A DNA stretch of 64,000 nucleotides from Ostreococcus lucimarinus (taxonomy: Eukaryota): NCBI GenBank assembly GCA_000092065.1, contig CP000594.1, one strand, 5' to 3'. Below, piece after piece: positions 11,902 through 56,171 of this stretch. Both the position numbers and the translations under genes were made by a program. How positions within the stretch are numbered: position 1 is the stretch's first letter; the number at the start of each line of letters is the position of its first letter. The notes below the pieces were generated by a model, which was not told the DNA's origin, did not search any database, and saw only the letters and a program-made list of their open reading frames with translations.

Positions 11902-11951
11902 AATCACAATTAATGATAGTACTAGCAGTAATTCGCAGTGCGCGCGCCGCG

Positions 11952-12653
11952 TCAACGCCCTAACCCAATCTTTTTCAACAGCGATTTTGATTCGCTCGCG
12001 AGCGCCAACCTCTCCGTGAGCTCGTCAATCTCCTCCTCCGTGAGCTCCGTCTTCACCTGATCGCCGTCCGGCGATTTCCCTTGTATCTTACGCACGAGAT
12101 AAATGATGGAATCCCGCTCGTCGTTCGCCTTACGCAGTCGCTCTTGAAGACTTTCCAACAGTTGCGTCTCCCGTTCGTCCGTCGGCGCTCGCGCCTCCCT
12201 CGACCCATCTCCCCGCTCATCCCGCGCCTTCGTCTCGCGCGTCGCCACCATCTCCATCGCATCGTTCGCGCCTCCGCGCCTCGCGCTCCCTCCGTCGTCC
12301 GCGCGCGCCGCCGCGCCTCGCGCGCCGCCGAACCATCCGAATCCGCGTCTCCCCCTCGCCTCCATCGCCGCCGCCCGCGCCGCCTCCCGCGCCGCCTCCC
12401 GCGCCCGTATCCTCGCCTCGATCCGATCCCCGATCGACTGCCCCCCCCGCTCGCCGAACACGTCGATGTACGACGCGTACCACGCCCGCGGCGCCGCGCA
12501 CAGCGTCATCAACCCGAGCGTCATCCACGCGATGCACGCCCTCGCCCGTCGCGTCCCGCGCTCGTGCGTCGCCCGCGCGTGTTGCGGCGTCACCTGCGCG
12601 TGTCTCGTCGGCGCCCGCGCGTCGCGCTCGCGTCGCTCGACGCGCGCGCGCAT
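11952..12653 (-). CDS. Hypothetical protein with an N-terminal hydrophobic segment and a C-terminal coiled-coil. The true start is probably the internal ATG near 12521.
   Basis: ORF whose C-terminal ~100 aa (RETQLLESLQERLRKANDERDSIIYLVRKIQ...EEEIDELTERLALASESKSLLKKIGL) have normal protein-like composition. Upstream part is R/A/G-rich and may be non-coding. No family recognised. Confidence 0.35.
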   Translation of the reverse strand: MRARVERRERDARAPTRHAQVTPQHARATHERGTRRARACIAWMTLGLMTLCAAPRAWYASYIDVFGERGGQSIGDRIEARIRAREAAREAARAAAMEARGRRGFGWFGGARGAAARADDGGSARRGGANDAMEMVATRETKARDERGDGSREARAPTDERETQLLESLQERLRKANDERDSIIYLVRKIQGKSPDGDQVKTELTEEEIDELTERLALASESKSLLKKIGLGR

Positions 12654-20344: not shown

Positions 20345-21545
20345 CTGCGTTCGAAAATAAGAAGCGAAAAAGTGAAAATGTCAGTCTTCGTCCGCTCGCT
20401 CGTTCATCGTCTCAGAGAGTATGGTCACAAAATATCCACATTGGGTATTCGGTAAAGTTTTTGGGTTAAGGTTTTCATCTTCCTTGACGACGGCGCGATT
20501 GAAGTCGAAGAAAAACGAACGTCGAGAACGACGACGACGACGACGGATGTAGCAGGGGTTCTAGAGGCCGTTAGTCATGGACAGACACGAAGCCCGCTTT
20601 ACCCAAGCGTCACTCTACGGGCGTCTTCTGACGCGTCCGCGAATCTTTGAATCGCGGCGCGCACGTTCGAGATAAATCTCGCACCCAACATCGATCGAAA
20701 AGTAAAATGAATCCATTCAGCGGCGTGTCAGTGTTTCGTGAATCTTTTCACCGCGCCGAAACGCTCTAAAGGTGTCCTAAGATATATTGACGAAGTCATC
20801 ACCCACACCGCCGAAACGGCGAGAAAAACCAAACAAACAAACCAACGATCGCGTCAGGAATCAAAAATGATTTCGTTTCAAAGGAAGCCACTGAACACGG
20901 AGTCCTCAATTGAACTATGCCTTGATTCGAGCATCACCCGCGTCGTCGTCCGTCGTCTTCGTCGTCTTCGTCGTCGCTCGACGAGAGAAAAATCCACCCG
21001 CCGCTCGCGCGCGTTTCCAAGCCTCAGCTTAACGAGATTCACAAGTTTGATCGTCACCGAAATCAGATGGTACGGACAAGTGTGTCTCATCATCGGCTTC
21101 GCGCGCGCGACGGGCGGTCGCGCGTTTTCGTTTATCCGGCTAGCGTTCCGGCGTCGCGGGACCGGCCCGCGCGCCTCGCTCACGGTTCGCCGCGTCTCGC
21201 GCGTCGCTCGCGCTCTCGCGCCCGTCCCGAGAGACGCGCGCTCGATCGCGTGCGTCATCGCTCGACGGTGGTTTATCTCGGCGCGACCGAGCGCTGCGCG
21301 CGTCATGAGCGGGACGCGGCAGTGACTCTAGAGTGGATCGGCCTCTCGCGTTCTCGCGCGTCGCGTCGTCGTCGTCGTCGTCGTCGTCCTCGTCGCGTCG
21401 CGTCGCGTCGTCGCGCACCTCGTCGCGCGTCTCTCGCGCGCGCGTCTCGCGTTCGCGCGCGCTCGCGTCGCGCGGTGCGGTCGGGTCCGATTCGCCGCCG
21501 CCGCCGCACACCGCGACGCCGCGTCGACGCGCCGCGACGACGCGC

Positions 21546-22580
21546 ATGGAGACGGACGCCGACACCGGACGGGTGCGCGTGAAACCTGCGCTCGAGGCCG
21601 TGCGCGCGCACGACGGCCCGCTCGAGATCGATCTCGGGACGCTGCGCGTCGTCGACGCCGCGCCGCTCGATGTCACCGCCGCCGACTCGGGCGAGGCGGA
21701 GGCGCACGCGCGCGAGCGCGCGCGAGACGTCCTCCAGCGCCTGGTCGCGGAGTTGTTCGCGCTGCCGAGCGAAACGGACGCGCACGGACGGTTCGCGCAG
21801 TTGCCCGAACCGACGACGACGTTCCCGAGGCTGCGCGCGTTGCCCCCGAGCGAGGCGCCGCTGACGAAGTGGGAAAAGTTCGCGAAGGAGAAGGGGATCA
21901 AGAAACGGAAGCGAAGCAAGGAGGTGTTCGATGAGAAGACGGATGAATGGAAACGGCGGTATGGGTATCAACGCGCGAGGGACGGGAACGATGTCATCAT
22001 CGCGCCGGGGAAGATGACGGACGTGCCGGGGAAGACGGAGGACCCGTTTACGCGCGAGGAGCGAGAGAAACGGGAACGGACGTTGAAGAATCGAGAGAAA
22101 CAAGATAAGAATTTGATGAACGCGGTGGCGGAGAAGGGTGCGAAGGCGTTACCGCCGACGCTGCGATTGGCGGTGACTGGTAAGAAGGACTCCGTGGGGA
22201 GCGGGAAGCTAGGGAAACGGGAGATGAAGGACGTGGCGGCGCGCGTCTCGCACTCCACGGCGTCGGTCGGCAAATTCAACGCCCCAGTGCCGGGAGACGA
22301 TAAGGTCAAGGTTCGCGGCAAGCGACGTCAGTTTGCGAGCGTGACGGATATGGATTCTGAGCGTAAGAAGAGCTCGGAAATCATCGATAAGTTGCTCGCG
22401 AAGGAGAAGCGCGGCGGCGTCGTCGACGTCAACGCGGCGGCGCGGAAGATTCAGCAAGAGAAGGAAAAGGCGAACCGCGTGAGCAAGCGCAAGAAGGCTG
22501 ACGGCGAGAGTAAGGAGCGGGCGTCCGGTAAGCGAGGGAAACCATCCGCAGCCGGAGGCGCTCGCGCGAAGAAGAAGTGA
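21546..22580 (+). CDS. RRS1: RRS1 ribosome biogenesis regulatory protein homolog.
   Basis: LPEPTTTFPRLRALPPSEAPLTKWEKFAKEKGIKKRKRSKEVFDEKTDEWKRRYGYQRARDG and TASVGKF motifs match RRS1. The first ATG is at 21546 (METDADTG...). The listed start at 21333 is a GTG. Confidence 0.8.
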   Translation: METDADTGRVRVKPALEAVRAHDGPLEIDLGTLRVVDAAPLDVTAADSGEAEAHARERARDVLQRLVAELFALPSETDAHGRFAQLPEPTTTFPRLRALPPSEAPLTKWEKFAKEKGIKKRKRSKEVFDEKTDEWKRRYGYQRARDGNDVIIAPGKMTDVPGKTEDPFTREEREKRERTLKNREKQDKNLMNAVAEKGAKALPPTLRLAVTGKKDSVGSGKLGKREMKDVAARVSHSTASVGKFNAPVPGDDKVKVRGKRRQFASVTDMDSERKKSSEIIDKLLAKEKRGGVVDVNAAARKIQQEKEKANRVSKRKKADGESKERASGKRGKPSAAGGARAKKK

Positions 22581-22739
22581 TTAGATTGTGATATAACCAA
22601 ACGACGACACGACGTTAAAGAACCGTAACAAACATCGCGAGTACATGTCGCGACCCGGGGCGACCACGACTTATGTTCCCTCGTATAGTTGCGTCTTCTC
22701 ATAGTGATTTGAAGTCGTAAAGTATGAAAAAAGTTGGTG

Positions 22740-22837
22740 ATCAACAGGTCCGGAGTTCGATTCTCCGAGGCCCCTACGACAGACCCATACCTAGGGCACT
22801 CGGGGTCTTAGCTCAGTGGTAGAGCGGTTGACTGCAG
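22740..22837 (+). tRNA. Circularly permuted tRNA-Cys(GCA) gene. The 3' half (22740-22775) lies upstream, then a 26-nt linker (22776-22801), then the 5' half (22802-22837).
   Basis: 5' half GGGGTCTTAGCTCAGTGGTAGAGCGGTTGACTGCAG carries the acceptor 5' strand, a D-arm with the A box, the anticodon stem 5' strand, and CUGCAG of the anticodon loop. The upstream 3' half ATCAACAGGTCCGGAGTTCGATTCTCCGAGGCCCCT carries anticodon stem 3' strand TCAAC, T-arm CGGAG-TTCGATT-CTCCG with the B box, acceptor 3' strand AGGCCCC and discriminator T. The joined halves give a canonical cloverleaf nearly identical to animal and plant tRNA-Cys-GCA. The junction is at position 37/38. Confidence 0.85.
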
Positions 22838-22971
22838 TTAAAAACCATTTCTTTTTTGGACGTTTCTCGTCTCGACGCGTTTAGGGCACTCGGGGTCTTA
22901 GCTCAGTGGTAGAGCGGTTGACTGCAGTTAAAAACCATTTCTTTTTTGGACGTTTCTCGTCTCGACGCGTA
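22792..22971 (+). repeat. Perfect 90-bp tandem duplication. Each unit holds the tRNA-Cys 5' half plus the T6 terminator. The second unit (5' half at 22892-22927) has no 3' half in front of it.
   Basis: The unit tagggcactcggggtcttagctcagtggtagagcggttgactgcagttaaaaaccatttcttttttggacgtttctcgtctcgacgcgt occurs twice, back to back. Confidence 0.9.
22852..22857 (+). terminator. T6 RNA polymerase III terminator directly after the 5' half of the permuted tRNA-Cys. A second T6 at 22942-22947 follows the duplicated copy.
   Basis: TTTTTT lies 15 nt downstream of the 5' half, as expected for a permuted tRNA transcription unit. Confidence 0.6.
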
Positions 22972-23067: not shown

Positions 23068-24864
23068 CTATTTCTTCGCGACGACTTGCGCGAAGCTCAC
23101 TTTGACCTTCTTCGCCGCCGCGGTCTCCGTCCCCGCGTGTAAATCATCGTTGAGCGAGTCCAATTGCGTGATTGAATCGTCTTCTTGCATTTCTTTGCGT
23201 TTGCGAGCCGCCTTCGTATCGTCTCCCAGGGGCAAAGGTTTCTCTTCGGAGATTTTCTTTTCCTCGTCCTCCGCGCTCGCCGCTTTCTTCTCCTTCTCCG
23301 GCGCGTAGATGTCCTTGACGTAGCCGTCGATTTCTTCTTTCACGAAGCTCGGTAAATCCTTGCGCTTCAAATATTTGACGTTCGCCTGCATCCCGGGTAC
23401 CCAGTTCGATTCCCCAGTCGCGCGATCCATCCACGACGTCACAGTCATTTGGAACTGCTCCACCGCGGGATTCAAGTTGAGCGAAACCTTCTCCTCCTTC
23501 TTCTTCAGGCTCGAAGGAAATAACCCCAAGAACAGCGTGACGTGCGAGTTTTCGTCCTTCTCCGGATCTTTGTACCTCGACGTGCCGGGATGCGCAAGCA
23601 TTTGCCCTCCCGTGGCGTTTTCGATGCCTTGGATTAAAAGCTTGATTCGCGAGCCGACCCAACCTTCCCACTTCTTAAAGTCATCTTCGTTCTTGGCCGA
23701 GATGGTAACCATCAAATAATGCTTGTATTTTTCTAAAAAGTTCAACGAACACCACAGCTGCTCCCACTTCGCGGTGTTTAAAAGAATCATCTTGGTCACT
23801 TCCTTGCCGCGCTTGAACTCGGCTTTGAGCACCTCGAGCGTGCTGACGCTCACGTTGAACGTAGAGTTTTGCGCCGGATACGCCGGAGTTAAGATTTTCA
23901 TCAACTGATATCGCTCTGCCTTGTTCACACGCTCGTCCCACACTCGCATCCCGGGTAAGCCTTCGTCGACGATGGGTACGAGCATCACCGGCGTCGTCCA
24001 TTGCCACGCCGACCATAGTTGGAAAAAGCTGTACACGAGCATGGAAGGTGCGGCGTTGGGGTACAACTGACACACGCGCGCTACTAAAATCGCCAGGTTT
24101 ACGCCACCGAAAAACCCGACGACGTTGCTATACACCCCGCGCCGCTGCGCCCACAGACGCAACGTGCGAAGCGCCACTCGAAACGCGTCGTGGTTTGGCA
24201 CGACGCGCAACAACTGATCCGCCACGCGACAACCATTCAGGGATTTCACCCCTGGGTCGTCCAAATTCATCATCACCGACGTCTGACACACGTCTAAGTC
24301 CTCTGGCACGTGCGTGTACGACGGTAAGCTCGTGTACGCCATATCTATTTCAAAACCTCTAAACACGAGTTTGATTTCTGGCACGATGGCGTCGCGCACG
24401 GGCACGATGCTCTCCGTTCCAGGGTGTTTCCGCATCACGTCATAAAACGACCCTTCGTAATCATTCTCATCCCATCCAAAGAAATCCTCCTCTCGGCTCA
24501 GATGTCTCGGCCCGAGGCACAGCGTATCGATATCCGCAGCCGGTCCGTGCACGCCCAATCTATAGCTCCCAAACGTGTACAAGTTACACGACGGCCGCAT
24601 ATCCTCTGTGATCCCCTTTCGCTCGCTCGCCGCCAGCACCCAGTCTTGCAACAACGCGTTTATCTCCCCCAGCACCTCCTCGCGTCGCACGCACTCGTCC
24701 GCGTCTTCGTACACGTCCTCTTCCCGCAGTTTGTCATCGAGCGCCTTGCTCAACTTTTCGTCGAACGCCGTCGGCATCTCGTTCGACATCACGCGATTCA
24801 GCGCCTCCGCGGACGCCGACTGGGTCATGACCGACGGTGCGGAGGGCGTCTGCGCGCCGATCAT
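23068..24864 (-). CDS. PAP: Nuclear poly(A) polymerase.
   Basis: Nucleotidyltransferase motif YTFGSYRLGVHGPAADIDTLCLGPRH. PAP central domain and C-terminal RNA-binding region. ATG at 24864. Confidence 0.85.
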   Translation of the reverse strand: MIGAQTPSAPSVMTQSASAEALNRVMSNEMPTAFDEKLSKALDDKLREEDVYEDADECVRREEVLGEINALLQDWVLAASERKGITEDMRPSCNLYTFGSYRLGVHGPAADIDTLCLGPRHLSREEDFFGWDENDYEGSFYDVMRKHPGTESIVPVRDAIVPEIKLVFRGFEIDMAYTSLPSYTHVPEDLDVCQTSVMMNLDDPGVKSLNGCRVADQLLRVVPNHDAFRVALRTLRLWAQRRGVYSNVVGFFGGVNLAILVARVCQLYPNAAPSMLVYSFFQLWSAWQWTTPVMLVPIVDEGLPGMRVWDERVNKAERYQLMKILTPAYPAQNSTFNVSVSTLEVLKAEFKRGKEVTKMILLNTAKWEQLWCSLNFLEKYKHYLMVTISAKNEDDFKKWEGWVGSRIKLLIQGIENATGGQMLAHPGTSRYKDPEKDENSHVTLFLGLFPSSLKKKEEKVSLNLNPAVEQFQMTVTSWMDRATGESNWVPGMQANVKYLKRKDLPSFVKEEIDGYVKDIYAPEKEKKAASAEDEEKKISEEKPLPLGDDTKAARKRKEMQEDDSITQLDSLNDDLHAGTETAAAKKVKVSFAQVVAKK

Positions 24865-25927: not shown

Positions 25928-26548
25928 TTACTGTACGCGGGCCATCCAGTTTGCAGGCGGTGACCAGGTTGTCACCGCCGCATGGTGATCTCTCTGGTCT
26001 TTAGGTGGGCAAGGCCCCATAGCCAAAAACTTCAAAGAACTACTATATTCCAGCGTGTCCAGTGCTTCCACATTGCGAAGCTTTTCGTCATCTCTTTTTT
26101 CCACCAACACGCAGAATTCATTTACTTCCACTGCCCAGGCCTGGCCGGTGTTTCTTTCTATTTTGTACATGCCGGCTCTGCATTGGAGGCCCATATTGAA
26201 AAGCTTAGCCTCGTTGACTTGCTAACAAACTTTCTCAAATGCCTCTACCATTTTCGGCGGTGTGCAACCCACCGGGAAGCGTATAGCAGACCAGCATCGG
26301 ATCGTTTCACAAATGGGCCACCCCCCCATGTCCTTCAGTGCGCCGTTCAAGATATCTACAAGCTCGATCGCCACGGGTGAGTTTCTCGACCAATCTGGGT
26401 CACGGGCACGCATGTAGAGAGGCGACGGCGCATGGGTTTTCAGCAGGGGGGCGATGCGCCAGGACGTGAAGTCGTGTTTCCCCTGAACTTGAAGAACTGC
26501 GAGCAGGTCGGGGTGATAGAATGCTGGGGTGCTCAGGCAACAACCCAT
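25928..26548 (-). CDS. Hypothetical protein with an N-terminal MGCCLS motif (consensus for N-myristoylation plus palmitoylation). The reading frame is interrupted by one in-frame TAG at 26222-26224.
   Basis: ATG at 26548. A TATA box (TATATAAAG on the minus strand, 26687-26695) lies ~140 nt upstream. The same frame continues after the TAG into ORF 25928-26194. No family recognised. Confidence 0.35.
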
Positions 26549-26686
26549 GATGCGCTGTGTTTCTTTTCTCGGCCACGCGCGCGTTTTCTTTTGTCCGCCT
26601 CTCTCTCGCGCGCGCGTCGTCGAGTGATGCTGGTGCCGCTCGTGACGGATTTAAGGGCGTGAACACCCGCGTGTAAAAGCAGACAC

Positions 26687-26695
26687 TTTATATAG
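26687..26695 (-). promoter_or_regulatory. TATA box for the MGCCLS gene.
   Basis: TATATAAAG on the minus strand, about 140 nt upstream of the ATG at 26548. Confidence 0.4.
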
Positions 26696-26756
26696 CACTT
26701 TGGGAGGTTAAAAGGTGTCCCAAAGTCTCATACATTGGCCTATACTTTGGCAACAT

Positions 26757-26794
26757 CCCGCGCTTTGATTACTGTACAGTAATCAAAGCGCGGG
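26757..26794. promoter_or_regulatory. Perfect 38-bp palindrome cccgcgctttgattactgt|acagtaatcaaagcgcggg in the ~340-bp divergent promoter between the MGCCLS gene and the 2OG-oxygenase/DOMON gene.
   Basis: Exact reverse-complement symmetry. Its 15-nt core ctttgattactgtac recurs at 25922-25936, followed there by gcggg. Confidence 0.5.
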
Positions 26795-26889
26795 ATACCG
26801 TGGAATGGACTCGGAAAAACCTCTAGAAGTTCGGCGGCGCCATTCCGCGCGCGATCTCAGCGGGCGAGCGTGATCACCAACGTGGACCG

Positions 26890-28959
26890 ATGAGGCACCG
26901 ATCGTACCGTGTATGCAATGGACGCACGCTCGCACTCATCGCGCTCGTCGTGCTTGTCGCACGCACGCAGCGCGTCTTCGCTTCGCCGACCGACGAGCGA
27001 AGATTCTGGACGCCCACTGTCGTCGCCGTGGACGACGGCGTCGGTTCGAAGATCCGACGCATGGGAAACGATGTGGAGAAATCGAAGTCTTTCGTGTTTG
27101 AGAACACGGTAGCGGAATCGCTGACAAGAGATGGCGTCGTCGCGGTGCGAGTGCGAGGCTTGAACGAAGCAAAGACACAGAGCGCAAAACTCTTCATGGA
27201 TTGCGCGCGGGTTACGGATAATGTTGCAGTAGAAGAGTACGACGATGGATCCAGGCGCGTGACGCTCGCCACGACGACGAAGCAGAGGGGGAGTGGTTTC
27301 GGGGAACCCACGTCCAAAGCATGTAAGAAGTTCGAGGTCACGACGAAAATGCTTCGCGCGAAAGTTTCTGTGGCCGAACAAGCAATCACGGACGTGTTTC
27401 AGAGCAAGTTTTCAGATCTGAGTGAATTTGCGAACGGGGTACTGATGCAGGGAGAGAACGGCGAGACCTATAAAACTTTCTCGGAAGTATTGAAAGACTG
27501 CGAGCACCTTGAACATTTTCACGGCTACACGATTTCACCACAACAAAAATTGAAGAATAGTAAAGTGCGGACGATCGAAGAGCACACGGATCAAGGTCTA
27601 CTCATCGCATTCGTCCCGGCCATAATTGTCGATGCAGTGACGGGAAGGCGCGATAAGTTTTCCTCAACCGGCGATTTTTATATGACGCTTCCTGGGCATC
27701 GCAAGGTGCTTCTCCATTTTGACACGCTTCCAGACGATGTCGTTATTTTTATGCTGGGTCAAGCAATCGAGCAACAAATCACTCCCAAACTTGCAAACGG
27801 CCTTGAGCTTCACGCTGTACCACACGCAATGGATATGCCCAATCTTAAATCTAATCAGTTCAGATTTTGGTATGGGCGAATGTTCCTCCCACCTGAGAAT
27901 GCCTTGGACGAAAGCCATGGTCTCTCTTTTGGGACAGTGCGCGCTAACATCATCGAAGATTTCGCACGTGGGCTGAAGACATCCGTGGGATGTGGTCGTG
28001 AGCTCCTCTCCGTGGCAGGGAGCGGTTCATGCGCTAGCAACCAGATATGGTGCTGGATGCGATGCATGAATCACTCAGCGCCGGCGAGCAATCCACTCAC
28101 ATGCAGGACGGGTCATAGTGTCCAATGTTTGAGCCAAAGACTGGAAGTCTGGACGGATGCCGACAGTCATGGTGATTATAATCCTGGATGCACCGACGAG
28201 ACCAACGAGACAAAGCCCGTCACCGATCCACCGACCATCCCAGCTCGAGCAGCCTCTTGTACAGATGGAAACGCCTGGGAAACTTTTTTGAACCACTCCG
28301 AATATGAAAACAGCTTGGAGCTGTTACAAGATAAGTTATATTTACTCTGGACTGTTCAAAATGGTAAGTTAAAAGCCCGAGTTGCCTTCAATGGCAAGAT
28401 TGGTTGGTTTGCTCTCGGCATCAAAAACCTAGGAGGGAAACACAACGGGATGAACGGGGCGAACATCGTCATGGGCGTCCACGACCCTCATCCAATGGGT
28501 CACGACAGCAATTTCGGTTCTCCTTATGTTGGAAAGAGCAGTGCGAAACAATACAAAATCCACGATCATTCTTCTGCTTTTCGACATTGGAATGACACTG
28601 CTGACGTTGCCTCACCCTTCGTGAGTTCGACGACGTTCAATTCATGTTTCAGTTGTATGCGTTTCGAGACGGCCTCGATACGGGGCGAGGCTCTGAATCT
28701 CACCTCTGGTATTAATGAACTCATCTGGGCTGCTCATGATGGCACTTACCTCAAAGGCTACCATGAAGTACAAGGATTCGATCGGAGAGATGCACGCGGG
28801 CATCTCACGCTTGACCTGACGCGAAATTACGGTCGTGTAACGTGCGGCTTCTCAAGAGGCTGGGCTGCGGCGAGTCAAACATGTGCTTTTTCGGCAGCAA
28901 GCACTCCTTCAGCGATAGTTTCTATATCCATTGCTGTCATTGCAATCCTCGTTATGTGA
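26890..28959 (+). CDS. Secreted, membrane-anchored fusion of a 2-oxoglutarate/Fe(II)-dioxygenase-like domain and a DOMON domain. Has a signal peptide and a C-terminal hydrophobic tail (GPI or TM).
   Basis: Signal peptide MRHRSYRVCNGRTLALIALVVLVARTQRVFA. H-x-D...H motif (EEHTDQGLLIAF ... LELHAVPHA) typical of 2OG-Fe(II) oxygenases. C-terminal DOMON-like region (LYLLWTVQNGKLKARVAFNGKIGWFALGIKN...LIWAAHDG). C-terminal tail AIVSISIAVIAILVM. Confidence 0.6.
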   Translation: MRHRSYRVCNGRTLALIALVVLVARTQRVFASPTDERRFWTPTVVAVDDGVGSKIRRMGNDVEKSKSFVFENTVAESLTRDGVVAVRVRGLNEAKTQSAKLFMDCARVTDNVAVEEYDDGSRRVTLATTTKQRGSGFGEPTSKACKKFEVTTKMLRAKVSVAEQAITDVFQSKFSDLSEFANGVLMQGENGETYKTFSEVLKDCEHLEHFHGYTISPQQKLKNSKVRTIEEHTDQGLLIAFVPAIIVDAVTGRRDKFSSTGDFYMTLPGHRKVLLHFDTLPDDVVIFMLGQAIEQQITPKLANGLELHAVPHAMDMPNLKSNQFRFWYGRMFLPPENALDESHGLSFGTVRANIIEDFARGLKTSVGCGRELLSVAGSGSCASNQIWCWMRCMNHSAPASNPLTCRTGHSVQCLSQRLEVWTDADSHGDYNPGCTDETNETKPVTDPPTIPARAASCTDGNAWETFLNHSEYENSLELLQDKLYLLWTVQNGKLKARVAFNGKIGWFALGIKNLGGKHNGMNGANIVMGVHDPHPMGHDSNFGSPYVGKSSAKQYKIHDHSSAFRHWNDTADVASPFVSSTTFNSCFSCMRFETASIRGEALNLTSGINELIWAAHDGTYLKGYHEVQGFDRRDARGHLTLDLTRNYGRVTCGFSRGWAAASQTCAFSAASTPSAIVSISIAVIAILVM

Positions 28960-29210
28960 CGCGGAAGTTTGCATTCTTCACGATCTTTCAATCGACACCC
29001 GAAACAGTCTGAGCACGCACCGACAGTCACGCCGTTGTAGGTCCCGGCGTGATAACAGAACTCTTCGCTTGATGCGAGTGCGTTCGTGCTCGCGTACGCA
29101 CTCGAAACGGTGCAGTCGGCGTGAGAGAAACACACGTCGCCCGGGTCCGCGCGCGCGGTGTGCGCGACGGCGAGAGCGAAAACGAACGGCACGAGGAGGT
29201 TCTGAAACAT
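28875..29210 (-). CDS. Candidate small secreted cysteine-rich protein. Its 3' end overlaps the C-terminal coding sequence of the convergent oxygenase/DOMON gene by 85 nt.
   Basis: ATG at 29210. Signal peptide MFQNLLVPFVFALAVAHTARA, then 8 Cys in ~70 aa. Could be spurious. Confidence 0.25.
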   Translation of the reverse strand: MFQNLLVPFVFALAVAHTARADPGDVCFSHADCTVSSAYASTNALASSEEFCYHAGTYNGVTVGACSDCFGCRLKDREECKLPRHITRIAMTAMDIETIAEGVLAAEKAHV

Positions 29211-29345
29211 TTTTGGTGTGGGTTTAGCTCGCGAAAAAGTTTCAGCGAGGCTTGACGTGCGCCGCAAAGTGAGGTTCGGAGATCCGGAGATCCGCCGGTT
29301 GACGCCCCGCGGGGCGTGTGTGCCAGCCCGTAGGGTTTAGGGGAT

Positions 29346-29437
29346 CGGACATATGGAGCCTCACTATTAAGACACACTGTCATATATATTAATGGATTTA
29401 TGACAGTGTGTCTTAATAGTGAGGCTCCATATGTCCG
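29346..29437. repeat. Hairpin-forming inverted repeat: perfect 39-bp arms (29346-29384 and 29399-29437) around a 14-nt AT loop. Imperfect arm extensions reach ~29300-29466 (shared ccccgcggggcg).
   Basis: cggacatatggagcctcactattaagacacactgtcata and its exact reverse complement. Confidence 0.85.
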
Positions 29438-29703
29438 ACCGCGGGCACACATCCCCGCGGGGCGCCAGCAGGGTCAGGTCGCAATTTTGCGTTTTCCCGC
29501 TCAGCCTTCACTAGAAACGTGTCTAAACCGGCCACTTTTTAAATCTTGTTTTTTGCTAGGTTTTTACTGTCTCCGGGTCTCGGAGGAATCGCGTGGAGTG
29601 ACCGGTTATGGGTTTAGTGGTTGGAGGTCCTGTGAGGAACTTTCTCTCCGTCACTTTTTTTCCATTTTTGAAAAAAAAAACGTCACATGTAAACTTTATA
29701 AAT

Positions 29704-29729
29704 AAACCTATAACCTATAACCTATAACC
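29704..29729 (+). repeat. (AACCTAT)n heptamer microsatellite, about 3.7 copies.
   Basis: aacctataacctataacctataacct. Confidence 0.8.
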
Positions 29730-29862
29730 TTGAAGGTTGAAATTTCTTAAGACCCGGGGTCCGCTGTTAAGGGGGGTCGGAACGCACAGAGAAATCGGGC
29801 TCGTCGTCCTGTGTATCAGCAGTCCTGTAGTAGGAAGTCATTTTTTGCTGTTTTGGGCATCC

Positions 29863-30172
29863 CTTGCGTTCAGAGATTCCATTCTGAAGAAATCTTAAGC
29901 GAGGGCACCAAAAACTCAAGGTCTCAACGGTCGCACGCTTCAGACTAGTTACATCTTCTGTACCTCCAAGCAGCGAAGTGCTCCTGTGTGTCAGGTTTGT
30001 CTCACCAAACACCGAGATCTTCGAGAAGACGAACACGTTCCGCTGAGAGTTTGCACGTGCACCTGTCTTCCTTTGCCTGATTTGTGAGCCATCACCCCAG
30101 ATTTGAATGTGGCGTATCTTATCGCGACACTCTCGCTTAAGATCTCTTCAGAATGGAATCTCTGAACGCAAG
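29863..30172. mobile_element. MITE-like 310-bp element bounded by 41-bp terminal inverted repeats with one mismatch. It is nested inside an imperfect outer inverted-repeat pair (29793-29829 and 30313-30357).
   Basis: TIR-L cttgcgttcagagattccattctgaagaaatcttaagcgag at 29863-29903. TIR-R at 30132-30172 is its reverse complement (a/g mismatch). No internal ORF. The surrounding context is an AT-rich, low-complexity intergenic region. Confidence 0.5.
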
Positions 30173-30996
30173 CCGTGGATGTATTAAACTGTGAACGAGG
30201 CTAGTCATGGTTCGATTTTTTGGATTACAAGTGTAGGTCTACTTTTACGTTTCGTGGACTCCGCTTGAGTCGGCCGATGTCACCACGTCAGGTGTTTCGA
30301 GTGCACTAGAGACGTGACCGCCGATACACAGGACGTCGAGCTCGGCGTGCCTGATTTCACGACTCGGTGACCATGGTTTGAAACCGAAATGACCATCGGC
30401 TTCAGGCCCAGGCGCGGCCGCAATGCTACTTTAAACTTAATATATTTTTTTTGAAAAAAGAGTAGTAAGAGTAATAAAAATAAACTTTTTTTTTGAGTTG
30501 GGGCACCCCAACATGATAAAACCGCACATCGCGGCGAGCCATGCGCGACCATCAATTTGATGTCATGTCTAGTCAGGCTCTCGTGGTAAAAACGTAAGAT
30601 GTGCTTATTACAGCATATGCCAATTGCGCAGTAAATCTCGAAGGACGACATCAAACATATCACAGAGCGCGCGCTTCACACCGTACAACACCATCTAAGG
30701 TACTTTCGACCGACGTTTTAGGCAATTTTGACTCGCCGACTGGTCTTTTCCAGTTGTGACGTCAGATTCGATACGATACTGGGTTACGATGCGTTGAGTT
30801 GGACTGTAGAGGCCTGTACCCTTACATGCACATCTTCCATGGAGCGCTGGAGAAAAGGCATTGTTGCATAATTATTGTCAAAATATAGATATTTTAATTT
30901 GACGCCACCATTATTAACTTTAAAATCAAGCCAGATCGCGACGACACTGAACATTTGAATGTGTATTCACACTTGAGAGACACTGGTTTCGGCAAC

Positions 30997-31980
30997 TCAC
31001 GATCGAGTACCGAAGACAAAATTAGCGCACTTTTTTCTATCATCTGCAGAATGCGAGTTTGGCGCATTTTTTACTGCGTCGCAGTGTTTCTTAGCCGCTT
31101 TGCACTGTTTGGAGCAGACATGCGGACATGCTGCCACCCAGGTTGGGTTGGAACATAGATGGCGCCTGCCTTCCGGCTTGCCGCAGCCCCGCGGAATCGA
31201 TTCACAGGGAGCCATGTTGGGTAGATCAGGCGTTTCCCAGACGGTACCAGAGATACCATCGAAACCTGGGCACGTGTAATCGTCACTCAGAGTACAGCCA
31301 GTCGCCGCCGAGCCTTGACAAGATCTTTTCCAACCACCCAAACGCCTATGGCCCTTTGTACGCTTTTGGCAAGTACCCGTCGACACGTTGTACGCTTGTT
31401 TAGCTTCCTTAGTATCAAACGAGTGACACACGCATGAATCAATCAGTGGCAAAGCGCGGACCTGTACGGCCGGCTCATGCTCGCACGCCCAACACGAGTG
31501 TCCTCCAATACTGATCCCGAACCGCTGGCGCATCTCTGACGCGCAGACTTTCGCGCGTTCCTCCTCGTTGAGCTCCATTCCCGCGCAGGCACAAGCGCAC
31601 TGTGCACGCGACCACTCCACTCCATCTGTCGCACCAACATAACCTCTCATATCATTCTCCAGTTGGGCGTGTTGGTCGTGGCATATTCTCGCACACGCCG
31701 CGAATGTCTTCATAGATTCTGGTAGTCCGTAGTGCACCGCGGCCTGGGACACCGCGTCGTCATCCATGAGTTTCCACCCCGTGACCCCCGAGCTCACTGG
31801 CCGCCGCCGCCGCCCGAGCTCACTTGACGGTGCATCCAAATCACCGCCCGCATCGCCTGGGTCCGTCGCCACCGCCGTGAACGGCGCATCCGCGTCAACG
31901 CCCGCGGCGACGTTCAGCGCCGCGGCCCCCACGAACAGCGCCAACGTCAAAGGTGACACACATTGCCTTCGAAACCCCAT
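30997..31980 (-). CDS. Secreted cysteine-rich hypothetical protein, about 327 aa.
   Basis: ATG at 31980 (MGFRRQCVSPLTLALFVGAAALNVAAGVDA, a signal peptide). About 30 Cys in clustered patterns in the C-terminal half. The listed ORF starts further upstream at a non-ATG codon. Confidence 0.45.
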   Translation of the reverse strand: MGFRRQCVSPLTLALFVGAAALNVAAGVDADAPFTAVATDPGDAGGDLDAPSSELGRRRRPVSSGVTGWKLMDDDAVSQAAVHYGLPESMKTFAACARICHDQHAQLENDMRGYVGATDGVEWSRAQCACACAGMELNEEERAKVCASEMRQRFGISIGGHSCWACEHEPAVQVRALPLIDSCVCHSFDTKEAKQAYNVSTGTCQKRTKGHRRLGGWKRSCQGSAATGCTLSDDYTCPGFDGISGTVWETPDLPNMAPCESIPRGCGKPEGRRHLCSNPTWVAACPHVCSKQCKAAKKHCDAVKNAPNSHSADDRKKCANFVFGTRS

Positions 31981-32270
31981 CCCGCGCGCGCGATCTGCTT
32001 TTTCGTCCACGCGGCGTCCACTCGCGAACGCGCGGATACCGTTCGCTCTCTCAGCGCCCTCCACGTCCGATCGGTTCGGAAGTGACGCGCGCGCGCAGAA
32101 TAGTTTCGCGTCACAACGCAATTATTCATTCCCGTGTTGATTTTATTCTATTCCAGGGGGTATGGGTATAGAGTTTACAGTGCCTTCGTACGAGATATTT
32201 CCCAACACCCTTTAGTACCAAAACCTAATTGCGTATCTTCCCTCACTTTCCGACGTCACGCGCGCACGCG

Positions 32271-35200
32271 ATGACGTCGGCGACGCCGAAACGACGGCGC
32301 GCGCGCAGATTTTTGTATGCGTTCGGAGGACCGACACTCTTATTTAACCTCATGCGCGTGTTTGCCATGTCCGGGCTCGTGGCAACAATTACAATGTCAA
32401 CAGCCGCGGGCGCCGCCCACGGTGGAGGTGCGAGCATGGACGAGGGACCGGCGCAAATGCATTATATGCCTGATCGATTTCGCAGCCTCGCGGGCGGCGG
32501 CTGGCTTACTATCTCATCGAGAGACGTGCACAAGAGCCTGATGCCCATGCCTGGGATGCGCGGTGGCGGGGAAGGCGCGAATGAGTCAGCAGTAAGTGGC
32601 AGCGCGATGAAGGACGAGGTGAAGATCGATCTGGCCCACGGTGACCCAGACGGTGAGCGATCGTGCGATCTCGTGCATTACAAGTCATCCTCGAATGAGT
32701 TGGTGTGTTCACCACGTGCGGTGGATTGCTGTTTGGACGGACTCACGGCGCAGGAGCTCGCCAGCGTAAGCGATGGGTGCCCGTCGGTGAGACCAGAGCT
32801 GAACGTCGAGGTCAACGGTCAGCGATTGACGTGGGGCAGCGCTGGTAGAAATGGAAGGGACACGCTCACGGACGAAAGTCTCAAAGTGAGCCATGGGCAG
32901 ACGCCGACGATCGTGGCGGTCGAGCCGGCTGAGGTTCGTCCCGGTGAGTTGATCACGGTGTACGGACGAACGTGCTTTGGCGATGTTTGGAAGAAAGATG
33001 AAGATGATGGTTCGTCTCTACGTGATGATCCCGACGCACTGCGAGATCTATTCTCGGTTGAAGCGAGCGCAAGAGAGGATCCGCGCCAAGAAATTGGATT
33101 GGAAAAGTCTCTCTACAAGGTGCTCATCGGTGACCTACCGTGCGAGGTTCGAGATCCACTCACAAACAGGTACTACCGATCCGAGCGCGGCGATGGTCCA
33201 TACACAGCCCACCGGCAAACAGAGTGTGGACCCGTTAACGGTTGGTTTCAGTGCCGTGTACCCCAAGACATCGATTCCGGTCTTCATCTACTTCATTACG
33301 AGACGTACACCAGAGGCAATGCTGTGATCCTGTCTGAGGCGCTCAGATGGAATGCATCGGACGCGTCCAAGGGCTACGTGCTGTCAGTGGTTGATGATAA
33401 GTCGGAAGATGAAGATCCACCGCGTGTTTATAACATAACGCAGCTCTCGAAGGATGAGTCCAAACAGCGACTCCTTGTTGAGGGTGCGTCTCTTGATGCG
33501 CCAAATATCGTCGTCGAGCTTGACGGGGAGCGCTGTGGTGGAAAAAAGGTTGTGTCCAGATCTGGCATCGAGGTTGAATGCTCAGGTTCAGCTGGAGCGA
33601 GCTCGCAGTATCACTACGGCCCCCCCGCGTGGCTGCGTGAAGACTGGGTGTTCAAGGACAAGAATAATAAGTTTGTCGGTGGCAAAGCGTGGTCTAACGC
33701 TCTCCACGTTTTGAAGCAGCGTGGAGAAAGGTACAACCCTCTCGCCGACGAAGTCATGGACGCTTTAAGCTCGGCATTGGCAACGAATGGCATTGTCCGC
33801 GGGTACAAGATCGAGAAAGTTCAACAGTATCTCACGAGCCCATCGGTTGGATCACCATATGTTGAGGCAACTAGCGGCATGAAAGCGGCGCACGCCGGAC
33901 TCATCCGTCACCGAAGGATACGGAATGCTGTGTTTGAACGTGTAAGCGGAGTCATCACCGCCAAAGCAAACGGGCGAATGCGCGTGGCGATCGCCAATGC
34001 GGCGGGCAATAACATGGTGCTTCGTGTGCGACATGTTTCCGACAACTTAAATGTATTCAAACCTTGGTTGTTAGTTTCCAAATTTTGCGGCACCAGATAC
34101 AGCAGACAAAACATTTATCGATACGGCTTTTCACAGTGGTTCAGTGTTCGTGGTAACGAAAAATACTATATGGAATTTCTGATGAACTTGGACCCCAGAT
34201 ACTTGCACAATTTCGGGGGATTCGATGTTAAGATGGAATTTTCCTACGACGCGGGTAATCCTGCGGGATCAATTGGGCAACTTACGCACACGACAACGCC
34301 TCACGTGCCCAAACGAGCGCATGGTGGCGATTACGTCGTGCGCTTTAGCGGCGCTTCGAAAACTGCGATCAGATTCGCTCATAATGCAACTTCTTCAAGA
34401 AGCAATTTTGAGTGGAAACTCTTCAGTGGCGGCAAGACCATCGAGTTCAATACGAAGAATTGGTTGCATGCACGCGAACACGTGCGGAAAGTTAGAGACG
34501 CTCTGCGATGGGCTAACTGTACCGCGCTGCCTGAAGACTCAAAGATGTGGGACGCGGACTCGACCCATTCTTCGCACCCATTCGACGTCGAGAATCGATG
34601 GCTCATGGTGCGTGATACGCAGACCTTCAAAGAGCCCACCACAGATTGGAACTTCATATGGCAACGTCGCATGGGCGGATTCAGAGGCGCGTCGATCGAC
34701 TGGAGTACCTCGTACTGTTCGACACACAGTCAAAAATTTGATTTGTCGTCACTACCCCCAGGAAGAGTCATCACTCCTTCTTCTCATTTCGACGTACCTG
34801 CATCTTCTCGTGCGACGACGAATAAGTTTCTGAACTTTGCCTACAAAGTCACTCCGGGTACGCGAGCGACCTTGTTACTTCGTCTAAAGTACCGAAGCGG
34901 TAATCGGGACATATCGACCACGTGCGCGGTTCTCCTCACCCATGAACAAGCGACTGGGAACGTGAAGAACTTCGATCACCCAGCGTGTGTGGACCTTCGA
35001 AGCGTCTTCAAGGATGATGGAGAGTGGCACTTTATTTCATTCGATTGGCGAACTGCGTTGGCCGGTGGTGAGTATGCCCCGAGTTATTTGGGCGAGGCTA
35101 TGTTCCCGCATAAAGTGCAAGTTCAACTCGATGGTATCGGTGTCGGCGCGCAGAGATTCCTCGGCAAGTGTCCGAATAAACAGCGCTTAGCGGAAATGTA

Positions 35201-38200
35201 TGTCGGTGATGAAGGAAGTGAACTGCGCGGTTACCTCTGGTTGGATAGCGTTTCTGTGACACAGGAACGCTACTCTCCTCAACGAGTCGAGACGCCCTCT
35301 GCACAGCTCGGAGGTATGCAAGAAGGCGTTCACGCAATCACAGATATTGAATATTCGGTCATCAGCCGAAGCGATGGCTCTAAGTGCAAATCGCTGTCGG
35401 ACTGTGATATCATCGTGAGCCTGCGTCAGGTGAAGAGATGCATTGATGCGCAGTCGCGAGGCGATTTCAATATTTCGCCGATGGTGATGTCACAGACGAG
35501 TCCAAACCCGCAACCCGCGACGGTCTCGTGTGGTCGTCACTATGCAGCGAACTGCTCGACTTGTCCGTGGAAGGTGTCCGCGGAAGGTGTCCGTGGAAGG
35601 TGGATGGGCTGGAAATATTGCAATGGTGCGTGCGAATGGAGATGGCACGGGCGTATCAATGCAGGTGGCACGTGCGTGTCAAAGCCAGCTCCAACTCCTC
35701 CGGCAATAACAGTCACGGATCGTACTTCTTCAACACGTGGAACCGTCACTGCACAGATCACAGGGGGGACGATGACGCAATTTTCCACCTCTGCCAATTC
35801 ATCTGAAGTGCAGGACGCATTACGTCATGTCCTCGGAGCGCACGACGGAGGCTTCGTGGTGAGTCCAAGCATGGATTTGTTTGATGCGTGCGGTGTGAGC
35901 GCTCATCGCATGCGCGTTGCGCATGCGAGCGATCTCGAATCGATCCAAGCGCGGTACAAAGAAGTCGTCAATGGTGTGCCCCTGGGAATGCTACCGAAAT
36001 CTTCCCGAGGCCGCACTGCGGAAAATGACGCAGGTCTCCTTAATATAACTGTGAATGTCTCAGGCGGCCTCGCTGAGATAGTCGCGACAGACGAGTCGAG
36101 CGATTTCATCGGTATGGTGCCCCTGGACACGAGAACAGATCTCGATGTGCGCGCCTTGATTCGCGGTGGCGACGCCGTGTTGGCGACGGCTGTTGTGACG
36201 GATGGCGACACAGTCGTACCATGTTCTGTCTCACCTGACCGTATGTCTGCGACTGGCTTCAAACAAGTTCCGAACGGGCAGGCATTCGTTGGCGATGCTT
36301 CTTGCCACATCATTGTGCCACACGAGGAAGTTGCATCTGACGCGACCGTGCACGCTCCGACGGAGTTGAATCAGGATGGTTTTCCCTCACTCGGTGAGTC
36401 CGTGAGTCAATCGAGTCCGACAGACCAGAAACGTCGACGGGACGTCGAAACTATCCGTCGGCGCAGCATGTCAAACTCGCTAAAATTTCCTGGCCATGAT
36501 ACCTGGGCAAAACGAGATCTATCGATGAGTAGATCCGATCTTGGACGATTAACAGTCACAGTGGTTGGTTTTGGTGCGCGTGTGCACAACGGCGCCGCGC
36601 ACCGTAGAGCTGCGAATCACGCGCGGAAACTGTTGAAAACGGAACTCGTCGCGAAGGATGCAGGTCAGGGGAGTCTCAACAATACGAAAAGCAAGTATGA
36701 ATTTCCGGCGGGCGCGGGTCGATTCAGTGATCCATCGACGTGGGGTCCTCGGGGAGTGCCGGACCAAAACTCGACGGATATGCTCTTTATTCCTGCCGGT
36801 TTCAATCTTACTCTGGATGTCGCCGATACGTACTTCCGCGTGTGGGTGATTGAGGGGCACCTAAATTTCCAACGGGGCATGAACATCACGATGCAAGCAG
36901 AAATGATCGTCATCAACGGCGACGACGCACACTTTAGCATTGGGAGTGAAACACGTCCCTTTGAAGATCAGGCGAATATCATCATGCACGGTCACTGGCG
37001 ATCCCTCGGCTTGCCCAAATATGGGGTGAAGTGCATCTCACTGACGAGCGGACGATTAACATTCTATGGTCAGCACGTCACGCCTTGGATGGAACTGGCC
37101 ACTACGGCTTCAGCTAACGCAAACGTTATTTCCGTCAGAAGCAAGGAAGGCAAGACTCCAGATCTCGCCGGATGGAAACCGGGTGCGAGTATTGTGGTGA
37201 CGTCAACCTCTTACGGGGACAGGAGATGTCGGCAAAACCGTACAGACGACTGTCAACCCGAGGAGCGCGTTATTGAATCTGTCACTCCTAGAGGCAACTT
37301 TGCGGACATAACTCTCGATCGACCGTTGAAGTATGAACATTTGGGTGAATCCGTGAATGTGGCGGGAAGCCCCCGCGGGGCTACGATTGAGCGTCGTGCT
37401 GAAGTAATGCTTCTCACGAGAAATATCAACGTGCGCGGCACGACTGAACACAATGGGTATAAGCTCGTCGGCTTTGGCGCGCACACTATGATGATGTCTG
37501 GTCAAATGGTGTTGAAAAATGTTGAATTCGGCCCAAACGTCGGACAGGCCTTCCAACTGGGTCGGTATGCCATCCACTACCACACGCCCAATGAAAAGAT
37601 GTTCAAATATGGTTTGACAGCCTCAAATGACCCGAGGATGCAGGGCGCAGACCAGCGCTTGAGTCGTGTGGAGGGAGTCTCGGTCCACCAATCAAACAAC
37701 CGTGCGATCGCGGTGCATGGTTGTTATCGACTGAACATCATTAACAACGTCGCGTACAACATCTTGGGACATGGGATGTTCGTTGAAGATGGTGTGGAAA
37801 TGTGGAACCTCTTCAAGGACAACGTTGTTTCTCTAGTGCATCGCTCTTTCTCTCTTTTGAACACTGATCAAACACCTGCAGCGTTTTGGATATCGAACGC
37901 TAACAATTTCTTCATCGGTAATCGAGTGTCATCGAGTAATCATCATGGATATTGGTTTGACCCACCAGGAGGACCTACCGGACCGTCGTCGCGAACGCTC
38001 ACGGGGCCTTTGGAAATCCAAAAATTAAGCACTCGGAAGGTACCGCTCGGCCAGTTTGAAAATAACAGAGCCCACTCGAATGGCCACTCCGGACTTTGGA
38101 TTGATCAAATAAACACGGTCTTGCAGCAAGGCGGCAGGCTCAGAATGTACATGGTCGGTACCCACGTATGGAACAATGGAATCAACGGTTTCGGAATGAT

Positions 38201-56089: not shown

Positions 56090-56171
56090 CGCATTCGGCA
56101 GGATTTGAACCTACGCACGGAGACCGTATTCGATTTCTAGTCGAACCCCTTAACCACTCGGGCACGAATGC
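56090..56171 (-). tRNA. tRNA-Ser(AGA), type II with a long variable arm.
   Basis: Minus-strand GCATTCGTGCCCGAGTGGTTAAGGGGTTCGACTAGAAATCGAATACGGTCTCCGTGCGTAGGTTCAAATCCTGCCGAATGCG. Acceptor stem 7 bp perfect. Anticodon loop CUAGAAA. Close to animal tRNA-Ser-AGA. Confidence 0.9.

Follow-up and report, generated by a model that had tools for sequence, protein, structure and literature searches.

A permuted tRNA-Cys(GCA) gene between RRS1 and PAP

In nuclear DNA of Ostreococcus lucimarinus CCE9901, a circularly permuted tRNA-Cys(GCA) gene (positions 22740-22857; type II, junction 37/38) sits between the gene for RRS1, a ribosome biogenesis regulator, and a convergent gene for nuclear poly(A) polymerase (PAP). 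Positions refer throughout to the window, i.e., the whole 64-kb stretch of DNA that was analyzed, and the coordinates of the gene parts, of the flanking genes and of the duplication that is the subject of this study are collected in Table 1. The 3' half precedes the 5' half on one strand with a short, terminator-free linker between them, which is the arrangement expected of a permuted gene. After A38, the 3' half consists of the anticodon-stem 3' strand UCAAC, the variable loop, the T arm CGGAG-TTCGATT-CTCCG, the acceptor 3' strand AGGCCCC and the discriminator U, while the 5' half contains the elements GGGGTCT, the D arm, GTTGA and CTGCAG. An AT-rich stretch, GTAAAGTATGAAAAAAG, was found at -24 to -8 and the motif CGTATAG at about -68, with the T6 run downstream; this agrees with the published layout of permuted tRNA genes, in which an AT-rich or TATA-like region lies ahead of the gene and a T-stretch follows it (PMC3978253). 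A scan for bacterial promoters and terminators returned nothing useful and is irrelevant to a Pol III gene.

Table 1. [quoted passage not shown]
Feature	Position	Strand	Description and basis
RRS1, ribosome biogenesis regulator, 344 aa	21546..22580	+	ORF; exact protein in environmental contigs annotated PF04939 RRS1
Leader of permuted pre-tRNA	22716..22739	+	Has the AT-rich stretch given in the text; sequence
3' half of tRNA-Cys(GCA)	22740..22775	+	A38 to discriminator U73; ARAGORN on joined halves, cloverleaf pairing, compensatory changes
Linker, 3' half to 5' half	22776..22801	+	26 nt, without T run; last 11 nt (22791-22801) within duplicated unit
Duplicated unit, copy 1	22791..22880	+	90 nt, comprising linker tail, 5' half, trailer, T6 and 23 nt of spacer beyond it; borders deduced from alleles with one copy
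5' half, copy 1	22802..22837	+	G1 to G37: acceptor 5' strand, D arm, anticodon-stem 5' strand, anticodon GCA
Trailer and Pol III terminator	22838..22857	+	Trailer 14 nt; T6 at 22852-22857
Duplicated unit, copy 2	22881..22970	+	90 nt; differs from copy 1 at first base only (T for C)
Orphan 5' half, copy 2	22892..22927	+	Same sequence as 22802-22837
Second T6 run, copy 2	22942..22947	+	Sequence
Nuclear poly(A) polymerase (PAP), 598 aa, convergent	23068..24864	-	Identical to XP_001421431.1, O. lucimarinus CCE9901

When the 5' half was joined to the 3' half, ARAGORN recognized a 72-nt tRNA-Cys(GCA). In native gene order, neither ARAGORN nor Rfam detected a tRNA at the locus: the sole tRNA that ARAGORN called in the window is an unrelated tRNA-Ser (56090-56171), and Rfam at its gathering threshold reported only a tRNA-Ser and a snoRNA. 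A scan for hidden T arms revealed no further T arm, 3' half or disrupted tRNA gene in the 64-kb window. At a permissive threshold the sole Rfam alignment was to YrlA (RF02553; 22723-22857, 32.8 bits, far below the gathering score of 69). YrlA also has the permuted order T arm, acceptor, D arm, which explains why it was the one Rfam model to align. We rejected YrlA identity because the score is below 69 bits, the family is bacterial and the two halves here form a complete, covarying tRNA-Cys.

Covariation was analyzed in an alignment of five virtual mature tRNAs, one taken from the window, two representing wild O. lucimarinus-like T-arm alleles and two belonging to sister species. Standard pairs were found at 21 of 21 cloverleaf positions in every one of them (105 pair cells, 100% paired), and five pairs exhibited changes on both sides, including the acceptor pairs 3:70 and 4:69 that link the separate halves. 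The pairing and covariation values were matched by 0 of 500 shuffles and by no slid register. The five double-changed pairs, together with the failure of any shuffle to equal them, indicate that the two halves co-evolve as one tRNA.

At the 37/38 junction an hBH motif is plausible. In a model drawn by hand, G-3 (22737) is placed opposite C32, with which it can pair, and U-2, G-1 and A38 remain unpaired as a 3-nt bulge in a relaxed hBH; this 3-nt bulge arrangement is what the eukaryotic splicing endonuclease recognizes. G-3 is kept in four Ostreococcus species despite otherwise unrelated leaders. The modeled central helix is weak, with C-G, U.G and G.U only, and constrained folding favors another register. 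Unconstrained folding of the pre-tRNA did not recover the cloverleaf and performed no better than shuffles (z = -0.94).

The permuted tRNA-Cys(GCA) of O. lucimarinus is listed in the review of Soma 2014 (PMC3978253) as type II (37/38) with a 26-nt intervening sequence, and, as relayed there, an additional 5' half of this gene was reported by Maruyama 2010 (Mol Biol Evol 27:1070). The window matches the published object, as this review describes it, in species, tRNA-Cys(GCA), 26-nt linker, 37/38 junction and the presence of a second, downstream 5' half; going by the same account, the extra 5' half itself is already published. What is new here is the single-unit state of wild conspecifics and the comparison with sister species at the locus. 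[quoted passage not shown] 2007) that are alike in having the 3' half upstream, an AT-rich or TATA-like region upstream and a T stretch downstream; their junction is processed at a BHB-type motif by way of a circular intermediate, as would be predicted for the present gene. The C. merolae genes have junctions at several positions and a full BHB, whereas the O. lucimarinus gene would form a relaxed hBH at 37/38. We know of no duplicated half among the C. merolae permuted tRNA genes.

The 5' half lies in a 90-nt tandem duplication

A repeat search of the window identified two blocks of 89 nt, 22792-22880 and 22882-22970, with 100% identity, and Tandem Repeats Finder called the pair at 22792-22970 with a period of 90, 2.0 copies, 100% matches and a score of 358. 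Both this call and direct comparison bear out what the first-pass annotation had described, i.e., a perfect tandem repeat with a second 5' half, in which linker tail, 5' half and terminator are duplicated once. That annotation had placed the 90-bp tandem duplication at 22792-22971; the period of 90 holds, but the borders shift, as the identical blocks measure 89 nt, base 22881 (T) falls between them and base 22971 (A) is outside the repeat. Identity ends at 22791/22881 (C vs T) on one side and at 22881/22971 (T vs A) on the other. Because single-copy relatives (all haplotypes outside the CCE9901-like group) read ...CATAC-T-TAGGG... at the unit boundary, the biological unit is taken to be 90 nt, 22791-22880 followed by 22881-22970. 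The duplicated segment thus starts 11 nt upstream of G1, within the linker, and ends 23 nt beyond T6.

The sequence across the tandem junction is GACGCGTTTAGGGCAC. The junction between the two units is blunt, with microhomology absent at the breakpoints, and no ORF spanning it was found in the window. No other tandem repeat in the 64 kb is both long and perfect; the remaining arrays are low-complexity and CG-rich, with matches of 69-93%. An exact adjacent repeat of 89 nt cannot arise randomly, and a chance origin is therefore excluded.

Sister species share the permuted gene with one 5' half

PAP homologues with 71-80% identity led to three further Ostreococcus lineages, and in each of these the RRS1-PAP interval contains a permuted tRNA-Cys(GCA) gene with one 5' half. 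The orientation is the same in one lineage (contigs L027/L028), with a linker of 55 nt; in another (L029) the gene is inverted relative to its flanks and the linker is about 42 nt; the third (L030) has a linker of 45 nt and a compensatory acceptor pair. Linkers, leaders and trailers are unalignable between the Ostreococcus species. Since the permuted gene is shared at one site across species, the permutation is as old as the genus.

Wild conspecifics carry a single unit

Environmental contigs were retrieved with the exact PAP and RRS1 proteins, one RRS1 variant and a pattern scan, yielding 30 distinct O. lucimarinus-like contigs that contain the unit. In 29 of these 30 a single unit runs into the right flank, and the tandem junction occurs in none of the 30; the comparison of copy number among sister strains that the first-pass annotation had proposed thus returned a single-unit state wherever the site is spanned. 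A 35-mer across the junction gave 0 matches in JGI metagenome contigs, a collection that is weak evidence by itself, given that a search with the 5' half returned only six loci; the assemblies found by way of the flanking proteins told more.

Four contigs bear most directly on the reference haplotype (L017, L018, L021 and L024). Over 6-14 kb their identity to the window reaches 99.9-99.97%, and they have the same private T-stem (CGGAG/CTCCG), the same leader and the same C at 22791, yet contain one unit each. They come from different samples and assemblers. The final assembly k-mers of 119-141 exceed the unit length and three contigs are, to judge by their names, long-read, which makes collapse of a 2 x 90 repeat unlikely, though possible. 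One SPAdes contig of a CCE9901-like haplotype (L019, the same as L023; coverage 65) stops exactly at the unit's last base; this end resembles an unresolved tandem loop and gives a weak hint of two-unit genomes at sea.

The duplication is absent from 29 conspecific contigs, near-identical haplotypes included, and would hence be very recent, in line with the age that the first-pass annotation had deduced from zero divergence. As far as these contigs go, it is probably private to the sequenced strain.

Structural alleles of the locus in wild haplotypes

The wild haplotypes have flanks that are 99.2-100% identical, and variation at the tRNA locus far exceeds that of the surrounding sequence. Per 100 nt, the leader has 16.7 segregating sites and the 3' half has 13.9, compared to 0.4 for the coding sequence of RRS1, 1.9 for that of PAP and 0 for the 5' half, which is invariant across all O. 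lucimarinus-like haplotypes. Positions 22729-22732 are hypervariable among haplotypes, and the T stem occurs in three alleles that differ by fully compensated pairs.

Two kinds of insertions were found within the permuted gene. In seven contigs, 53 nt are inserted after G45; the insertion has GTATGT...CTAG ends and contains three telomere-type repeats, CCCTAAA. Three contigs have insertions of 111-122 nt after A21, in the D arm, which start with GTAAGT or GTGCGT and, 25-30 nt ahead of the terminal AG, contain CTGAC. Pairing is also possible between the last bases of these D-arm insertions and D-loop positions 15-20, including one covarying pair, and a relaxed hBH may be an alternative to a spliceosomal reading of these insertions. 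No other copies of the wild-allele insertions were detected in the window or in the fetched loci, and no Rfam family matched them.

A further allele departs from the permuted order altogether. In contigs L033/L034 and six similar contigs, about 350 nt replace the leader, 3' half and linker and encode a complete, non-permuted tRNA-Cys(GCA) with the insertion in the D arm, a canonical 37/38 intron of 24 nt and a T5 run of its own. Behind this tRNA come an AT-rich spacer, 9-10 nt of a fragmentary 5' half and then the old 5' half, which is intact and keeps its trailer and T6, so that the layout reads 5'-intron-3'-spacer-5'. The spliced exons fold as tRNA-Cys, and the acceptor stem, GGGTCGT/ACGGCCC, mismatches the orphan 5' half. 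A search of IMG/VR for a viral source gave 0 matches to the 5' half or to the 3' exon of the non-permuted allele.

The forms observed at this locus therefore comprise a permuted gene; a permuted gene with duplicated 5' half (the reference); a permuted gene whose D arm or variable region has insertions bounded by GT...AG; and a non-permuted, two-intron gene with an orphaned old 5' half.

Origin and fate of the second 5' half

We consider it likely that copy 2 is a young, strain-private duplication, not a leftover from the permutation, and that it is most probably carried along as a silent passenger. It would have arisen by one tandem duplication of the 90-bp segment 22791-22880 in an already permuted gene, and the blunt junction is suggestive of a non-homologous repair event, or of template switching, at a fragile Pol III locus. 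Slippage between short direct repeats, which the first-pass annotation had put forward as replication slippage, was rejected since the breakpoints share no microhomology.

The C at 22791 opposite the T at 22881 does not fit a simple duplication on the C haplotype, and three routes could account for it. The duplication may have come first and been followed by T>C in copy 1, in which case the wild single-unit C haplotypes would be revertants; 89 bp may have been duplicated on the C haplotype together with a 1-nt filler; or unequal exchange may have taken place between two haplotypes. An overlap of reference contigs that was left unmerged, with the first base of the second contig miscalled, would give the same pattern.

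Such an overlap belongs to an alternative that we regard as improbable but live, and that was already raised in the first-pass annotation: CCE9901 would have one true unit, and the ends of two overlapping contigs would have been abutted unmerged during finishing. The single-unit state of all environmental contigs spanning the site, among them the four that are at least 99.9% identical and share the private alleles, speaks for it, as do the lack of the junction sequence in JGI metagenome contigs and the fact that the copies differ solely at the base that opens copy 2, a place where a read end of low quality would fall. Against it, the O. lucimarinus genome (Palenik 2007) is reportedly a finished Sanger assembly, and the 90-bp unit is far below Sanger read length, so that single reads cover the whole structure. 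The odd base at 22881 is moreover not random but a T, the allele of all other haplotypes; the CCE9901-like SPAdes contig ends at the unit's last base, as an unresolved tandem loop would; and the locus is demonstrably prone to genuine structural change. Maruyama 2010 and Soma 2014 also accepted the feature as it stands, according to the latter review (PMC3978253).

On the model in the literature, an upstream AT-rich promoter would give one Pol III RNA that runs from the 3' half through the 26-nt linker and the 5' half into the trailer and ends at T6, and a circular intermediate would form from which RNase P and tRNase Z would then remove the linker; maturation through a circular RNA intermediate to an aminoacylated tRNA has been reported for some green-algal permuted tRNAs (PMC3978253). 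The 5' half of copy 2 lies 34 nt downstream of the T6 terminator. Upstream of it are only the copy 1 trailer, T6 and spacer, and the conserved block CTCGTATAGTTGCG...GTAAAGTATGAA, which precedes the 3' half in every haplotype, is missing. Located behind a terminator, with neither a 3' half nor a promoter region, copy 2 is most likely an inert passenger, and this position lends no support to the tRNA-half-like transcript suggested in the first-pass annotation. Nor does the 3' half need a trans partner, another role envisaged there, because the sole 3' half is covalently linked in cis to copy 1. From its position in the sequence, then, copy 2 is most probably silent.

A functional second half, reached by read-through or from its own start and serving as a back-up 5' half and terminator or as the source of a tRNA-half-like small RNA, is very unlikely in our view. 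Copy 2 does retain the A box, the linker's last 11 nt, the trailer and T6, a read-through RNA could be processed to the same tRNA, and no part of the locus is better conserved than the 5' half. A rare read-through RNA would, however, at most carry a redundant second 5' half and give the same mature tRNA, and in a modeled read-through transcript the pairing with copy 1 is favored by about 9 kcal/mol over that with copy 2 (-62.5 vs -53.8 kcal/mol). Copy 2 also has no B box, in addition to lying behind T6 without a 3' half or the conserved upstream sequence; its absence from all wild haplotypes means that it is not needed; and identity that reaches into the spacer reflects recency rather than selection.

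The split tRNA genes of Nanoarchaeum equitans and Caldivirga also have a 5' half without an adjacent 3' half. Their halves have their own promoters and complementary leaders and trailers, and both are essential and joined in trans, whereas copy 2 is redundant in cis and dispensable in wild haplotypes; in the 64 kb, copy 2 appears to have neither a promoter region nor a partner half in need of it. The partial tRNA duplications at att sites of mobile elements are likewise direct repeats of part of a tRNA gene, but att repeats flank an insert and usually involve the 3' part, while the O. lucimarinus copies abut and involve the 5' part.

The extra 5' half was suggested by Maruyama 2010 and Soma 2014, as the latter review presents it (PMC3978253), to be a possible intermediate in the evolution of permuted genes, i.e., a leftover from tandem duplication of an intron-containing tRNA-Cys gene, whereas the comparisons made here point to a recent, strain-private duplication or an artefact. 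The wild allele with the order 5'-intron-3'-spacer-5' does place such a layout at this very locus. We nevertheless find a relic the least credible reading, with hardly any chance of being correct. The permuted gene occupies one site in at least four Ostreococcus species with unalignable linkers, yet the units here are identical at 89 of 89 nt, spacer included, unlike what is expected of a duplication-and-loss intermediate. Copy 2 begins inside the linker of the permuted gene and hence post-dates the permutation, and the two-unit state is missing in 29 of 29 spanning conspecific contigs. Under duplication and loss, the leftover should also be a 5' half that precedes the 3' half, or a 3' half further downstream, and not a second 5' half after the first. 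Being younger than the permutation and missing from wild conspecifics, the extra 5' half provides no evidence for a duplication-and-loss origin.

Implications for permuted tRNA genes

On its own, the duplication is of little importance, a published curiosity of one reference genome that is probably functionless. The comparisons do remove the extra 5' half, which has been cited in its favor, as evidence for a duplication-and-loss origin of permuted tRNA genes. The main use of the duplication is as a pointer to a single, presumably important tRNA gene that is a hotspot of structural change in natural Ostreococcus populations; one wild allele carries the layout that this origin model actually predicts, and the origin and turnover of permuted tRNA genes would be open to population sequencing and tRNA-seq, beyond the few reference genomes. 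Tentatively, the extra 5' half could be viewed as one member of a rich structural allele series of a single tRNA-Cys gene within one species, with flanks at least 99.5% identical. If these alleles turn into one another through recombination or breakage at the 5' half, then gain, loss and possibly reversal of the permutation would be ongoing, and the locus could also include tRNA insertions that leave by a route other than canonical 37/38 tRNA splicing.

Variation of the T stem, leader and linker

When all O. lucimarinus-like loci were compared, mutational hot spots in the permuted gene for tRNA-Cys(GCA) were located in the T stem (window 22751-22767) and the leader (window 22729-22732), with 14-17 segregating sites per 100 nt versus 0.4-1.9 in the flanking coding sequence. 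Three T-stem alleles were found, i.e., CGGAG/CTCCG (the window allele), CCGCG/CGCGG, and CCGAG/CTCGG. Among these, every difference is a compensated pair, and the T loop additionally shows a G/A change. Five leader variants were present; the 5' half was devoid of variation across the same set of loci. A further haplotype, from an environmental scaffold of 146 kb (L022) that ends within the trailer, has a 6-nt deletion that shortens the linker from 26 to 20 nt, and its leader reads GAAATTTG.

Rearrangements between RRS1 and PAP

Several haplotypes (L004/L038, L005, L006, L014, and L037) harbor an insertion of approximately 399 bp between the tRNA unit and the 3' end of the poly(A) polymerase gene PAP, at a site equivalent to the position after window 22992. 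In locus L003, this element borders on another upstream neighbor, a Zip-family gene, suggesting that it is mobile or recombinogenic. In one sister Ostreococcus lineage (L029), the permuted tRNA-Cys gene is found on the opposite strand within the same RRS1-PAP interval, an arrangement that is a local inversion of the entire permuted gene.

Each flanking protein has two GenBank/RefSeq accessions at NCBI on the same 708,927-bp record, ABO99724.1/ABO99758.1 for window 23068-24864 and ABO99545.1/ABO99580.1 for window 21546-22580; these pairs could reflect gene models entered twice or a region present in two copies. Upstream of RRS1 lies a snoR117-like snoRNA that is kept in the environmental loci. 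Across the window, blocks of ~48-53% GC (window 1-12000 and 26000-42000) alternate with blocks of 60-73% GC (the rest), a pattern reminiscent of the low-GC "outlier" regions known from Mamiellales chromosomes.

Features located in the window and in the retrieved environmental loci
Feature	Sequence	Position	Strand	Remark
C/D-box snoRNA, Rfam snoR117	window	21019-21098	-	43.4 bits, just over the gathering score of 42
Permuted tRNA-Cys gene, inverted	L029	5180-5290	+ (of locus)	
53-nt insertion	L001	6027-6079	-	after window 22747 equivalent
D-arm insertion	L035	2777-2898		within 5' half
D-arm insertion	L031	2779-2889		within 5' half
D-arm insertion	L039	2777-2887		within 5' half
Allele with non-permuted, complete tRNA-Cys(GCA) and orphaned old 5' half	L033	2681-3116		
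Allele with non-permuted, complete tRNA-Cys(GCA) and orphaned old 5' half	L034	2681-3116		

Insertions within the tRNA halves

A 53-nt insertion interrupts the 3' half in its variable region in L001 and also in L002, L008, L009/L036, L020, and L040, on two different T-stem backgrounds. The insertion has AGGT on either side and ends of the form GTATGT...CTAG. Within it are telomere-type (CCCTAAA)3 repeats as well as leader sequence in inverted copies (GTATTTCATAC and TTGATCACCAA); through these inverted copies, the anticodon-stem strand would become locked into a hairpin of 11 bp.

In three other permuted alleles, the 5' half is broken after A21 by insertions of 111-122 nt, which matched no Rfam family and had no further copies in the window or the retrieved loci. 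These D-arm insertions display spliceosome-like signals, starting with GTAAGT or GTGCGT, finishing in AG, and having CTGAC 25-30 nt ahead of their end. Pairing between their final bases and D-loop nucleotides 15-20 (GGGGU/ACUUC versus GUGGU/ACUAU) is likewise possible, and a relaxed hBH is therefore an alternative to the spliceosome-like reading.

A possible two-unit allele and a non-permuted allele

One SPAdes contig with a CCE9901-like haplotype (ERZ22170354 NODE_6043, retrieved as both L019 and L023; coverage 65) terminates at the base corresponding to window 22880, coinciding exactly with the last base of the duplicated 90-nt unit. An unresolved tandem loop would give such a stop, which is a possible sign of a two-unit allele in nature.

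A wild allele (L033/L034) encodes a non-permuted, complete tRNA-Cys(GCA), with the cassette standing in place of the equivalent of window 22731-22799 between flanks whose identity to the window is 99.7% and 100%; six more similar contigs were reported by the search. In the gene, a D-arm insertion of 116 nt separates exon 1 (GGGTCGTTAGCTCAGGGGTA) from exon 2, an intron of 24 nt at 37/38 separates exon 2 from exon 3, and a T5 run comes last. Behind the gene lie an AT-rich spacer, a GGGGTCTTA fragment, and the old 5' half, now orphaned, together with its trailer and T6. This 5'-intron-3'-spacer-5' layout is the arrangement that the duplication-loss model for the origin of permuted tRNA genes predicts.
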